Virus genome (UHGV): UHGV-0008471
DNA from: a virus
Strand: one strand, 5' to 3'
Length of the DNA stretch: 31,257 nt
The notes below the pieces were generated by a model. That model did not search any database and was not told where the DNA came from. It worked only from the letters and a program-made list of their open reading frames with translations. The translations under genes and the position numbers were made by a program. How positions within the stretch are numbered: position 1 is the stretch's first letter; every line of letters starts with the position of its first letter. This document shows positions 1 through 4,000 of this stretch, piece after piece.

Positions 1-183
1 TGAATAAAACCACGAGTTCCTGGTGTGCCTTATTCGGCCTGCTAGTTCGAATTTAATTTACGGTTTTTATGTGGTTTTAGGGATAAACACAAGGATGGTG
101 TCCCCTGCAGACATCTACTTGAAGCGGCAGGGGATTGATTGGAATGGTGTTTTTTAGATGTGAAAAAAATTTTACCCGCTATT

Positions 184-384
184 TTACCCATTGGCGCGGC
201 TTAAGAGCTTATTTTTGAATTCACAATGGTCACGATATAACCATCTTGCTCGCCCGTGGATAACTTTGGCTTTAGGCAGGTCCCCGGACTTAATCCGGTC
301 ATAGATGAAGGTTTTACCGAAGCCAGTATCGGCCATGATGAATTTCAAATCAACCAGTGAATCAGGCTGTAGTTCGTGTTGCAT
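184..384 (-). CDS. xis: Excisionase / AlpA-family small DNA-binding protein (66 aa)
   Basis: ORF-track translation has a short winged-helix-like motif (TGFGKTFIYDRIKSGDLP) typical of AlpA/Xis proteins; sits at the distal end of the leftward early operon. No integrase ORF in the 183 bp to its left. Confidence 0.6.
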   Translation of the reverse strand: MQHELQPDSLVDLKFIMADTGFGKTFIYDRIKSGDLPKAKVIHGRARWLYRDHCEFKNKLLSRANG

Positions 385-427
385 GAGTGCTATCTCCGAA
401 TAGGGAATCGAACCTGCAAATCAGGCA

Positions 428-455
428 ATAAAAAACCGCCATCAGGCGGCTTGGT
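428..455 (-). terminator. Rho-independent terminator (GC hairpin plus U-tract on minus-strand transcript)
   Basis: Minus-strand RNA reads GCCGCC-UGAU-GGCGG followed by UUUUUUAUU; lies directly after the stop of the 442..609 ORF. Confidence 0.5.
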
Positions 456-609
456 GTTCTTTCAGTTCTTCAATTCGAATATTGGTTACGTCTGCATGTG
501 CTATCTGCGCCCATAGCATCCAGTGGTCATAGCAGTAATTGATGTTCTCTGCTTCGATAACTCTGTTGAATGGTTCTCCATTCCATTCACCTGTGACTCG
601 GAAGTGCAT
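442..609 (-). CDS. Small hypothetical protein (55 aa), below the ORF-track size cutoff
   Basis: Hand translation gives MHFRVTGEWNGEPFNRVIEAENINYCYDHWMLWAQIAHADVTNIRIEELKEHQAA; ATG preceded by GGAG; bracketed by hairpin terminators on both sides. Confidence 0.5.
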   Translation of the reverse strand: MHFRVTGEWNGEPFNRVIEAENINYCYDHWMLWAQIAHADVTNIRIEELKEHQAA

Positions 610-614
610 TTATC

Positions 615-645
615 ATCTCCATAAAACAAAACTCGCCGTAGCGAG
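615..645 (-). terminator. Hairpin plus U-tract terminator, minus strand (approximate coordinates)
   Basis: Perfect stem ACTCGC-CGTA-GCGAGT in the plus sequence; the minus transcript hairpin is followed by UUUUGUUUU immediately before the SD of the 442..609 ORF. Confidence 0.45.
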
Positions 646-767
646 TTCAGATAAAAGAAATCCCCGCAAGTGCGAGGATTGTTATTGTCTTTGCTTCGTG
701 CATTTGTCGCACTTTCGGCACCATCCAGATAGGCACATCCGTCCGCAATTAACACATATAGGCCACA

Positions 768-1049
768 TCATTTTTCCTCTTTTGGTTTATGAATCTGAAT
801 GGTCATGCCGCTTTGAGTGGTGACTACAATGACAGAACCAGGCTGAAGGCTGTTAAGATTGAATGCTTCGTAAAATGAATCCAATGCCAGTGCTTTTTTA
901 TTCTTTCGGTTCCACCAACGCCATCCCTTGCTACAGGCTACACTGACAATCCACTGTCCACTCCTGTAAGCCATATAAAACCAGATGAGCAAAACCTGAA
1001 GGAATGCTATCCAGTCAATAATCGTATATTTCGCGAAGGAGTACATCAC
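768..1049 (-). CDS. Small hypothetical protein (93 aa) with one predicted transmembrane helix
   Basis: Hydrophobic stretch IIDWIAFLQVLLIWFYMAY; its start overlaps the stop of the upstream gene at 1046-1049, consistent with translational coupling. Confidence 0.4.
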   Translation of the reverse strand: MMYSFAKYTIIDWIAFLQVLLIWFYMAYRSGQWIVSVACSKGWRWWNRKNKKALALDSFYEAFNLNSLQPGSVIVVTTQSGMTIQIHKPKEEK

Positions 1050-1729
1050 TTCACCTCCTGCTGTGGTGCTGCTGCAATCATCGCGCGGTATGCAGCCTGC
1101 ATGTCGTTGTCATCATCGTCTGTGTACGGAGCCGAATCCCATGCTGCACGCATATCCGGAGTAAGCTCAACCGGCACCATCACCCAACCATCCGGAATCA
1201 CCGGAGAGTTGCCATCCAGTCTACGCAAAACAGCCTTAACAGCTTCAATACGGTCATCATCAACTTTTTCTACAATATTGGAATTTAAATACTTCGAAGC
1301 GTTGCTATGCCAATCGCTGGTTTTAGGGTCTTGTCCATCCATCAAACGCCAAGCTTCAGCGATTAACTCATAGCCAGTGACAGTGGCTTCCTGCGCATCA
1401 CCAATCAGTTGTGTGATCTCTCTTTCAAGCATGCTTAGAGGGTTAGGCATTGGTTTTTCTTCCGGTACTACTGGCGCTGGAGGGGTGGCGTATACTTCAA
1501 TAATCCCATTATCAATAGGCCATTCTCCATCCTTGAGATAGTCACTTGTGCCGTCAACTTGCTGTTCAGCAATGTGGAATGCACCAACTGGCTCTGCTTC
1601 CAGCGATGCCAGAGCAATTCGTGCCAGTTCTTCCGCTTCTTCTGCTGGCAGTACAACGTTGCTACCAGGTCCGTATGTTTCGCGCCACTGCTTGATTGTC
1701 AGCAGTCGTTCTCTGGTAATAGTGCTCAT
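1046..1729 (-). CDS. Hypothetical acidic phage protein (227 aa from ATG at 1729)
   Basis: Long ORF; internal ATG at 1729 preceded by AAGGAAAG; proline-rich linker (PPAPVVPEEKPMPNP) between two acidic domains; no family recognised. Confidence 0.55.
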   Translation of the reverse strand: MSTITRERLLTIKQWRETYGPGSNVVLPAEEAEELARIALASLEAEPVGAFHIAEQQVDGTSDYLKDGEWPIDNGIIEVYATPPAPVVPEEKPMPNPLSMLEREITQLIGDAQEATVTGYELIAEAWRLMDGQDPKTSDWHSNASKYLNSNIVEKVDDDRIEAVKAVLRRLDGNSPVIPDGWVMVPVELTPDMRAAWDSAPYTDDDDNDMQAAYRAMIAAAPQQEVK

Positions 1730-1730
1730 A

Positions 1731-1949
1731 TCAGCTTTCCTTATACGGATTAATTTTATTGTGCAGTGTGTTGAACGAGGCCCATACCACGTCGTTATAC
1801 AATTCAATAACTGGCTCAATTATTTTCCCGATTGCCCAGACAAAAATTAGCGGGGATATCGGTGTCATCAACACGATAAACAGAATGAGAAACAGGAGTT
1901 CTGTTATTCGACTTCTTCGCGGATATTCTTTTCTGAATAATGTTGGCAC
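1731..1949 (-). CDS. Small hypothetical membrane protein (72 aa, GTG start)
   Basis: GTG start preceded by AAGGAGAG; single long hydrophobic segment (LLFLILFIVLMTPISPLIFVWAIG). Confidence 0.4.
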   Translation of the reverse strand: MPTLFRKEYPRRSRITELLFLILFIVLMTPISPLIFVWAIGKIIEPVIELYNDVVWASFNTLHNKINPYKES

Positions 1950-1950
1950 A

Positions 1951-2166
1951 TTACTCTCCTTTGTTGCTCCTCAAAATTTTATGCCCTGGCGCAAAAGCAC
2001 GCGTTTTGTCGGCGCTTATTCGCCACCCATCTTTACGTGCCTCTTTTGCGCAGCCAGCCCATGACGTACCGATATACTCACCGAAGTCTGGCGACTTATA
2101 TTTGCCATCTGTACACTGGAGGCAATCACAATAGAGATGCATGGTGTAACTTGCAGCGATAGCCAT
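1951..2166 (-). CDS. Small Cys-rich hypothetical protein (71 aa from ATG at 2166)
   Basis: ATG at 2166 preceded by AAGGAGAG; Cys cluster CDCLQC...C suggests a small metal-binding fold. Confidence 0.45.
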   Translation of the reverse strand: MAIAASYTMHLYCDCLQCTDGKYKSPDFGEYIGTSWAGCAKEARKDGWRISADKTRAFAPGHKILRSNKGE

Positions 2167-2167
2167 A

Positions 2168-2785
2168 TCACTCTCCTTTGATGCGAATGCCAGTGGCACG
2201 GGAATCATTCCATCGCTTTACTTCTTCACGAATTACGTCAATGCATTCTTTCGAATCCATTAGGTAATCTTCATCAAAAAGACGTTCCTGTTCGTTTTCT
2301 ATCGCAACAATGATTGCTTCAACTAACTTTTGTGCCTGAGAACCACTTTCTAACTCTGCTATGCGCTTACTTCCATCCGCGATTACTCCCTCGTAATATT
2401 CACGCTGCTCGTTGAGTTTTGATTTTGCTGCTTCAAGCTCAACTCTCAGCTTCCCTACCGTTAGCGCAATATCCTCGTTCTCCTGGTCGCGGCGTTTGAT
2501 GTATTGCTGGTTTCTTTCCCGTTCATCCAGCAGTGCCAGCACAGTAACCGGATTGGCTGCGGAGATGAATTCAGCATTGGCTTGCTGTTCCATTTGGAAA
2601 TCTTCATCGAAACCGCTTTCAGGATGCGCTCCTTCAATTCTGCAAATGGGAAGATATCCAACAACTTCACGATGAATTAGTGCATCACCAGCATCAAATC
2701 TCTCCTCTCCATATTCGAGCGACCACACACCACACGTTGCTTTTTCTGCCGCTTCACGCAGTGCCTGATAGTCAATCTTGTTCAT
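2168..2785 (-). CDS. Ead/Ea22-like protein (205 aa)
   Basis: N-terminal ALREAAEKAT...W motif and coiled-coil middle region, as recalled for the Ead/Ea22 family of lambdoid early-accessory regions. Confidence 0.6.
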   Translation of the reverse strand: MNKIDYQALREAAEKATCGVWSLEYGEERFDAGDALIHREVVGYLPICRIEGAHPESGFDEDFQMEQQANAEFISAANPVTVLALLDERERNQQYIKRRDQENEDIALTVGKLRVELEAAKSKLNEQREYYEGVIADGSKRIAELESGSQAQKLVEAIIVAIENEQERLFDEDYLMDSKECIDVIREEVKRWNDSRATGIRIKGE

Positions 2786-2786
2786 G

Positions 2787-3086
2787 TCACATCACCCTGA
2801 AGCCGTTGCATTTACGTAAGAAATCGCAGATATAGCCCTTCATTTTTTCATGCCAATCTCGATCATTCCCATTGCACCACCCATCAGGTGGAGTCCAGTT
2901 TTCTATCAGAGCAGCCATTTTCTTTGCTTTCGCCGGAGTAGCTGTTGCGGTATCGCAGTAATGACGAGTGTCAACAAACTTATCCATGCCATCGATATCA
3001 AGTACGCAAAACCATGTGTGATTCGGAATTCCTACAGGTGGTATTTGTTGCCCACGTCGGCGTTTATCAATGAGATATACACTCAC
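2787..3086 (-). CDS. Hypothetical protein (99 aa, GTG start)
   Basis: GTG start with strong AAGGAGGT SD; start overlaps upstream stop (GTGA). Confidence 0.5.
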   Translation of the reverse strand: MSVYLIDKRRRGQQIPPVGIPNHTWFCVLDIDGMDKFVDTRHYCDTATATPAKAKKMAALIENWTPPDGWCNGNDRDWHEKMKGYICDFLRKCNGFRVM

Positions 3087-3532
3087 TGGTTACCTCCTTT
3101 GCGAAGCTCTGCGGCGAACTCGTTAAGTGATATGTAGCAATCTCCAAATGTTAACGAACCGCTCGACTGCATATGCTCCATAGCCATCTCCACGCCCTGC
3201 GCCCGTACTTCAGCCAGGAAAGCATCGGTGGCTGGGGTTTCAGTAACATCATCTTCCCATTCGCTAAACTCCTCACGACAAAAGTCATTAAATTCCTTCT
3301 CAGATTGCTTAAGCGAGGTATTTTCAGCAGCCATCTTCGCGCATTTAGCCTCAAGGTTATCAATCGTGATTCCAGCAGAACGACACTCACGCAACGCCGT
3401 TTCTAGTTTTGATTCAAGTTCACCGAACTTACGCACCAGATATTCAGCGTTTGTTTCGTTAACCTTTAAATCACTTGGGATGCATTTACCTTTCAGAAAA
3501 CCATCCATCTCAATTAGTGACATTTGTTTCAT
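3083..3532 (-). CDS. Hypothetical coiled-coil protein (about 149 aa; alternative GTG start at 3550)
   Basis: ORF-track 3083..3550; the ATG at 3532 overlaps the upstream stop (ATGA); acidic, helical sequence. Confidence 0.5.
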
Positions 3533-3711
3533 TTCTTCCCACTCCGCCACATCGCATTCAGATATTTGTTGTCATTAACAGAACCGAAACTATTTCTCTT
3601 AAGCAATTCCTCTCTCGATGGCATTGGCTTTACGCGTTGGCGAATAATCATTTCTGCCGGAAGAATGCCGGGATTGTATGCAAGTCCTCTCATGGTAAAT
3701 TCCTCAGTCAT
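3529..3711 (-). CDS. Small hypothetical protein (60 aa)
   Basis: Internal ATG at 3711 overlaps the stop of the 3704..4000 ORF; start choice uncertain. Confidence 0.35.
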
Positions 3712-4000
3712 TACTGATAGCGCCATAGCGTGAGCGGTAATTACGCAGGCGCGGGTCGATATATTCAGGGAAGTTGGTATATGTGGCTTTGCGGAATGGT
3801 CGGATTGATGTCTGGTAAATTCGCTCTCGTTCTTCTTTCTCTGCAAGCCATATACAGTGGCGAAATTCCTTTTCCTCTTTCGTTTCCTGCGGTAGCGACA
3901 TTATCCGGTCGTAGTTTTTCCTGAATTTATCCAGCACCTCCGATACGGAATTGCCGGAACAGCGGCGTGGGTCATCCGCACCATACAGAGGCGCTGGCAT
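3704..4000 (-). CDS. Hypothetical protein (98 aa)
   Basis: ATG preceded by AAGGA; basic/acidic mixed sequence; no family recognised. Confidence 0.5.

Follow-up and report, generated by a model that had tools for sequence, protein, structure and literature searches.

In lambda and in the Shiga toxin (Stx) phages, the exo-xis region belongs to the early-left part of the genome; it is non-essential, and its distal part varies in the number and kind of its genes (PMC8614690, PMC10834534). The Ea22 proteins encoded there are mosaic, with exchangeable acidic C-terminal domains (PMC8614690, PMC10834534). How does the virus genome UHGV-0008471 compare? We analysed a stretch of 31,257 nucleotides (nt) of this genome (the window) and, within it, four small open reading frames (ORFs) at positions 768-2166, here called A to D. 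The original prediction, made from the letters alone, saw in them an uncharacterised accessory cluster in which two small membrane proteins flank a soluble one and could constitute a functional module. We conclude that the locus is probably an ordinary mosaic ea region of the P22 type, similar to lambda exo-xis, and that A to D are four separate cassettes and not the subunits of one system. The four ORFs are:

ORF A: 768-1046, minus strand; 92 residues from its ATG; DUF4752 family.
ORF B: 1046-1729, minus strand; 227 residues; acidic, by alignment an EaA-type mosaic protein.
ORF C: 1731-1949, minus strand; 72 residues from a GTG start; DUF4014 family.
ORF D: 1951-2166, minus strand; 71 residues; PHROG 926.

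All four are present on the minus strand where they had been predicted, and hydropathy and composition bear out how each had been described. ORF A had been read as 93 residues from a GTG at 1049 (minus strand); its database homologues are 92 residues long. We regard A to D as real genes, not chance ORFs, because A and C match Pfam families (E = 2e-36 and 2e-25) and D and B match PHROG families (E = 7e-36 and 1e-43). The earlier statement that none belongs to a recognisable family therefore falls: DUF4752, DUF4014, PHROG 926 and, judging from its alignment, the EaA-type mosaic are all catalogued. The word uncharacterised stands, since no protein of the four has a known function; NCBIfam gave no match for any of them.

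Comparison with described systems

The ea region of P22-type phages (eaA-eaI; Gally, HK620, Sf6) takes the same position, from the recombination genes to xis and on the same strand, and likewise includes an Ead/Ea22-like neighbour. The gene order here is ERF, Anti-RecBCD_p2, DUF2737, DUF7739, Ead_Ea22, D, C, B, A, a 55-residue gene and xis. Small packed genes on one strand thus lead from the early-left recombination genes (erf, abc2) to xis, so that the predicted assignment to an ea-type accessory region is borne out. We take this to be the ea region of the early-left operon, the counterpart of lambda exo-xis.

In Gally a DUF4752 gene stands directly after 'EaA', as A stands after B here. In contrast to the P22 equivalents, B of the window carries a rarer C-terminal domain, and the window's combination of cassettes is absent at 80% coverage from the collections searched: none of 50,697 phage records covers at least 80% of window positions 400-2900, and of 5,426 complete E. 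coli genomes 2,395 match part of 768-2166, none with coverage of at least 80% (best 54%, megablast). The exo-xis regions of lambda and the Stx phages (orf60a, orf63, orf61, orf73, ea22) likewise have a variable downstream gene set, and the Stx1 phage NC_004913 carries a DUF4014 gene and a gene for a DUF551 protein between ea22 and xis. Unlike in lambda, the conserved block orf60a, orf63, orf61, orf73 is not adjacent in the window.

Deleting the exo-xis region from phage Phi24B leads to envelope and heat-shock changes (PMC10789677). We considered these phenotypes as a possible function of the membrane proteins A and C and dropped the idea: none of A, C and D is present in Phi24B, so that its phenotypes are not transferable to these genes.

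Distribution of the four genes

Do A to D behave as one small module (membrane, acidic soluble, membrane, Cys-rich)? Their tight stop-to-start packing would suit such a unit. For each anchor gene we took the 80 closest loci among IMG/VR viral contigs, placed the genes by tblastn and counted only loci with enough flanking DNA. The frequencies of neighbours were:

A anchors (n = 48): C in 0%, D in 6%, Ead in 71%, the 55-residue gene in 71%.
C anchors (n = 46): A in 11%, D in 17%.
D anchors (n = 57): A in 12%, C in 47%.

A is tied more strongly to Ead and to the 55-residue gene (71% each) than to C (0%) or D (6%), and N-termini like that of B lie near all three anchors (39-46%). Gene orders vary across the loci: D-C, D-B, C-B, B-C and A..C are all found. 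Across diverged genomes, then, the four neither co-occur as a set nor keep their order.

The families are also unlike in their distribution. Among the 50,697 phage records A occurs in 57, C in 127 and D in 427, and 306 of the 427 D matches fall below 60% identity. The distant D matches that we sampled lie largely in Salmonella, Klebsiella and Dickeya phages of ~150 kb, a size typical of virulent phages, together with a few phages of ~47 kb. D and C are adjacent also in the P1-like phage D6 and not in Salmonella phage NM-3. That the O157:H7 Stx prophages have A, C and D no more than 1.6 kb apart would agree with a module; the low co-occurrence, the varying orders and the unlike family distributions argue against one. 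Separate distribution was what the original prediction itself had named as fatal to its module of two membrane proteins around a soluble one, and it is essentially what we find.

What of the packing? From Ead to D, from D to C and from C to B the spacing is +1 nt in each case, and from B to A it is -1 (a TGATG overlap), which is compatible with translational coupling. Such packing is not unique to A to D. According to the gene calls of locus L323, the 11 genes from erf to A, unrelated neighbours among them, either overlap or lie no more than 23 nt apart. L323, a contig from a public assembly, matches 5.2 kb of the window at 99.98% identity; the region is already on record, its genes sorted into DUF and PHROG families.

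Conserved gene junctions

The original prediction had noticed an identical ribosome-binding motif, AAGGAGAG, before two of the genes. The motif does occur twice, but as part of a longer conserved junction, AAAGGAGAGTGAT(A/G)TG. The sequence AAAGGAGAGTGAT lies upstream of D at 2179-2167 and AAAGGAGAGTAAT upstream of C at 1962-1950, and the element common to both is AAAGGAGAGT(G/A)AT. The 16-mer AAAGGAGAGTGAT(A/G)TG encodes the KGE tail of the preceding gene with its stop codon, the Shine-Dalgarno (SD) sequence and the start of the next gene. The four junctions are:

AAAGGAGAGTGATATG: 2164-2179, minus strand; last codons of Ead (..KGE), stop, SD, ATG of D.
AAAGGAGAGTAATGTG: 1947-1962, minus strand; last codons of D (..KGE), stop, SD, GTG of C.
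AAGGAAAGCTGATATG: 1727-1742, minus strand; a degenerate version of the linker, with the tail of C (..KES), stop, SD, ATG of B.
CAGGAGGTGAAGTGATG: 1044-1060, minus strand; tail of B (..QEVK), SD, stop overlapping the ATG of A.

How widely are such junctions used? In the loci sampled, 19 upstream classes stand before the exact KGE-stop 16-mer and 15 downstream classes after it, in 54 combinations. The downstream classes include D, C, B-like genes and several other families; 11 different upstream classes precede D and 6 precede C. Behind one and the same Ead 3' end comes D in 16 loci, C in 6 and a B-like gene in 18. For the second type, CAGGAGGTGAAGT(G/A)ATG (..QEVK-stop), there are 14 classes upstream and 4 downstream, the latter mostly DUF4752.

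In the IMG/VR loci L004-L322, the residues ..GIRIKGE, ..KGE or ..PQEVK stand directly before the stop of many unrelated ea-region proteins. Because these last codons belong to the conserved junction of stop, SD and start, the shared C-terminal tails are probably derived from the junction and are not functional parts of the proteins.

We propose that the junctions couple translation along the operon and, at the same time, supply patches of homology at which cassettes may be exchanged between phages. These two roles would explain why the same ribosome-binding site was seen twice. In the modular theory of Susskind and Botstein ('linker sequence' exchange), the mosaic boundaries of lambdoid phages lie at gene junctions, and here too short conserved boundaries (16-17 nt of stop, SD and start) flank interchangeable genes in many gene pairs. 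The present junctions differ from that idea in being partly coding (the KGE-stop and QEVK-stop tails) and in doubling as translational-coupling signals. We found no open-access paper on these particular junctions.

Recent linkage and flanking features

What, then, weighs against four separate cassettes? The adjacency of D and C is fairly frequent (47% of the D anchors, and phage D6), and that of EaA-type and DUF4752 genes is very frequent. In every one of the contigs read that carry the exact B protein (24, in 5 distinct contexts) the D-C-B-A block is the same, and over short times the four genes travel together, along with the 55-residue gene. Our co-occurrence figures come from the 80 closest relatives of each anchor, by tblastn and not by family hidden Markov models, and without phylogenetic correction; the timing of expression and the recombination at junctions are what we infer from P22 and lambda.

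To place this linkage, the features that flank the four ORFs are needed:

Ead/Ea22-like gene: 2168-2785, minus strand; upstream of the cluster; Pfam PF13935, E = 8e-38; its 3' end is the KGE-stop junction.
55-residue gene: 442-609, minus strand; between A and xis; matches phrog_676.
xis-like gene: 184-384.
Two tandem terminator-like hairpins: 680-659 and 648-629, minus strand; directly 3' of ORF A (consensus scan).
Third terminator-like hairpin: 452-433, minus strand; 3' of the 55-residue gene (consensus scan).

Throughout the window's first 5 kb every gene lies on the minus strand. The cluster does lie between xis and Ead, as first described, except that the 55-residue gene intervenes between A and xis.

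Prophages that differ in their int/xis context, three such contexts in all, share window positions ~422-2200 at 99-100% identity (blastn against L323-L327). Two independent breakpoints, in two other prophage backgrounds, lie at ~2198-2201, ~20 nt upstream of the Ead/D KGE-stop junction; at the other end, where different xis/int modules are joined, the block breaks off at ~416-422, just downstream of the hairpin 452-433. D, C, B, A and the 55-residue gene form a young linkage block, as physical proximity alone would give. An identical block in 24 contigs and three int/xis backgrounds might seem to speak for a four-gene module; that the block takes in the 55-residue gene, and ends at breakpoints beside a junction and a hairpin, is what plain physical linkage predicts.

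The xis-like gene has no integrase beside it. In L323 (4846-6165) base 1 of the window borders on genes for a LysR-type regulator of the host and for a GntP permease, and in other genomes the same accessory block adjoins two different integrases. This end of the prophage may lack int or be rearranged. The locus L326 (685-4462) is a deleted or rearranged prophage remnant: its D-C-B-A block comes after holin and lysis genes of the opposite strand, with a stretch of ~1 kb without a called gene between them, and the whole upstream early-left region is missing.

From where are these genes transcribed? A consensus scan found no sigma-70-like promoter on the gene strand in window positions 1-4000. 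Since promoter-like sites are lacking there and terminator-like hairpins follow both A and the 55-residue gene, the most likely setting for A to D is expression early in lytic growth or on induction, by read-through from pL. The only match in Rfam was below the threshold and due to chance, and the tRNA search found none.

The individual proteins

ORF A matches Pfam DUF4752 (PF15944) with E = 2.4e-36 and 124.1 bits, against a gathering cut-off of 27, over model positions 2-84 of 84. It also matches phrog_667, and its homologues carry the name 'DUF4752 family protein'. Its hydropathy profile has a single hydrophobic segment at residues 8-26 (Kyte-Doolittle, KD19 1.78), followed by a basic motif rich in Trp and Arg; in the family alignment an invariant GWRWWNR comes after the hydrophobic helix, along with a conserved small C-terminal domain. 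A scan of species-representative genomes for DUF4752 returned 2 loci, too few for statistics. In the Mu-like phage of locus L329 (2021-3285) the MuA- and MuB-like transposition genes have a DUF4752 gene, 63% identical, immediately behind them. In Mu itself kil occupies the slot after MuB. This position raised the thought that DUF4752 might be an analogue of Mu Kil, which we dropped, there being no sequence similarity to Mu Kil.

ORF C matches Pfam DUF4014 (PF13198) with E = 1.9e-25 and 89.5 bits, against a cut-off of 23.2, over model positions 2-71 of 72, and also phrog_1832 (E = 2.9e-44). A basic N-terminus precedes a hydrophobic stretch of 25 residues, 17-41 (KD19 2.68). Hydropathy, taken together with what is known of P22 and lambda, suggests that both A and C are bitopic inner-membrane proteins. 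C and B-like genes are found in nin regions as well, after replication genes. In NC_004913 (L333, 2501-2719) and in phrog_1832 the DUF4014 product is named 'released from the phage upon host infection'. We found no source paper for this label, nor any note in the record that backs it; we treat it as unsupported, an annotation that seems to have been passed on without evidence that can be traced. A literature search found no paper that mentions DUF4752 or DUF4014.

What kind of protein is B? It has a pI of 4.27, a net charge of -23 and a Pro-rich stretch at residues 81-96. No Pfam family matches it at E of 0.1 or below, and so neither DUF551 (PF04448) nor Ead/Ea22 (PF13935) does; phrog_60 matches over the whole length (E = 1e-43) and several other PHROGs match piecewise. 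The alignment gives a variable N-terminus (1-35), a conserved core with the Pro-rich linker (36-179) that ends in PDGW, a swapped domain (180-220, VMVPVELTPDMRAAW...) and a conserved tail, APQQEVK. The earlier description of a two-domain protein with a proline-rich linker was right about the linker and the acidity, and too simple about the domains, since N-terminus, core and swapped C-terminus can be told apart.

Most relatives of B have a DUF551 domain after the PDGW breakpoint, where B of the window has a different domain of a rarer type (30 phage records, best match phi80). The NCBI name 'DUF551 domain-containing protein', carried by the identical protein P0047, thus appears misleading, as the domain search does not support it. 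Against Gally EaA, B has 40% identity overall (E = 9e-45): the first 48 residues are near-identical, the linker PVVPEEKPMPNPL and the tail AAPQQEVK are shared, and what lies between has diverged. On the strength of this shared N-terminus, linker and tail we assign B, by alignment, to the EaA-type mosaics, relatives of P22 EaA in phrog_60. Some B-like proteins have an N-terminal Rv2179c-like (PF16473) exonuclease segment, P0160 being an example, and the product of an alternative cassette behind the QEVK-stop junction starts with the same residues (MNNLMIDLETMGKN) as that segment.

Like lambda Ea22 (PMC10834534), B is acidic and predicted to be helical, with a conserved core and a swappable C-terminal domain; unlike lambda Ea22 it lacks a match to Pfam Ead_Ea22. 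Its AlphaFold2 model is unreliable, with a mean predicted local distance difference test score (pLDDT) of 44 and a predicted template-modelling score of 0.21. By analogy with Ea22, B could be an oligomeric acidic scaffold that presents an exchangeable, target-binding C-terminal domain.

ORF D, a small basic protein with four Cys, matches PHROG 926 with E = 7.4e-36 over positions 1-69 of 69. No Pfam family was found for D or for 48 distant relatives. Its family comprises 418 representative clusters, nearly all of them stand-alone proteins of 60-80 residues, with the motifs MIxxGYxLxLYCDCxxC and ARxxGWxI..D...C.AP.H. C13, C15, C18 and H62 are the same in all close relatives; across the wider family C13 alone is invariant, with variation at the remaining ligand positions. 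A zinc site is a plausible candidate on these residues, and D might be a small zinc-binding protein whose partner is nucleic acid or another protein. The AlphaFold2 model is of moderate confidence (pLDDT 78.6); it has no structural relative that we could find in the PDB, and in BFVD it resembles only uncharacterised phage proteins. Searches of PDB sequences with B, with D and with the D-family profile gave nothing meaningful, and a weak match to a ZF-HD homeobox (E = 0.014) was set aside. Two E. coli proteins, P0038 and P0042, are chimeric relatives of D, in which the first ~32 residues (through LYCDCxQC..DFGEYI) are joined to an unrelated Cys-rich C-terminus; recombination therefore takes place also inside this small gene.

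Alternative explanations

Could B and A alone be a functional pair, made in a fixed ratio through their TGATG overlap, with the DUF4752 protein anchoring or relaying a soluble EaA-type partner and with C and D as mere passengers? Of 80 close DUF4752 loci, 79 have an overlap between the stop of the upstream gene and the DUF4752 ATG, and all but one of the upstream tails end in Q/L-E-x-K/N (PQEVK and APQQEVK are commonest), although these tails come behind 14 different C-terminal domain clusters. This conserved tail can equally be explained as the DUF4752 cassette's own upstream junction. Among divergent DUF4752 genes (52-64% identity) a B-like protein lies upstream in three of five contexts, namely in Enterobacter, where the partner has the same C-terminal domain type as B of the window, in a lambdoid nin region and in Kosakonia; the pair is found, then, in both ea and nin regions. 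On the other hand, in the Mu-like phage the gene before DUF4752 is the MuB-like one, at a distance of 87 nt, and in SPN1S it comes after a protein that is ASCH-like by eye. Seen from the other partner, DUF4752 follows B-like genes in only 6 of 68 anchored loci, and 24 other families also follow them, counts for qualitative use only, as the B-like and Ead families, which share domains, fell together when neighbouring ORFs were grouped by single-linkage clustering. B-like followed by A thus appears to be the most regular pairing, obligatory in neither direction and a modest lead; that these two are the functional unit we consider unlikely.

A bolder proposal, to which we give still less credence, would make of the EaA-type and DUF4752 proteins a two-part device, with a diversifying head for variable targets in the host or in rival phages and a constant membrane partner, and of the KGE-stop and QEVK-stop junctions a dedicated system for the exchange of cassettes.

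A and C, both predicted to be small membrane proteins, might instead be factors of superinfection exclusion or defence that are expressed in the lysogen, in a role like that of P22 SieA or HK97 gp15. Small prophage membrane proteins often act in exclusion, and the three terminator-like hairpins after A could insulate the region from downstream genes. Yet the genes sit inside the early-left operon, in its orientation and translationally coupled to early genes upstream; the scan of the gene strand over 1-4000 gave them no promoter-like site of their own; the defence models of PADLOC-DB matched none of A to D at E of 0.1 or below; and a Mu-like phage has A in its early region, as nin regions have C. 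We regard this role as improbable.

That all four genes together make one functional module is very improbable indeed, having been largely refuted already by their distribution.

Discussion

How might an ea region of separate cassettes, the reading we prefer, work? At its distal end, from the recombination genes to xis, the early-left operon would carry a row of small accessory cassettes, each of them dispensable by itself. A to D would be four of these, each from a different catalogued family without a known function and each shuffled through the prophages of E. coli and Salmonella independently of the rest. If P22 and lambda are a guide, transcription would start at pL and proceed by antitermination, so that the genes would be expressed early in lytic growth or on induction and not in the lysogen; by the same analogy, the shuffling would come about through recombination at the junctions.

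The finding as it stands matters little, the region being typical lambdoid 'dark matter'. The KGE-stop and QEVK-stop junctions mark the boundaries of cassettes and offer a means of defining the exchangeable units of ea and nin regions. If the pairing of EaA-type and DUF4752 proteins were functional, it would open a way into one of the commonest protein families of enterobacterial prophages that still lack an explanation.

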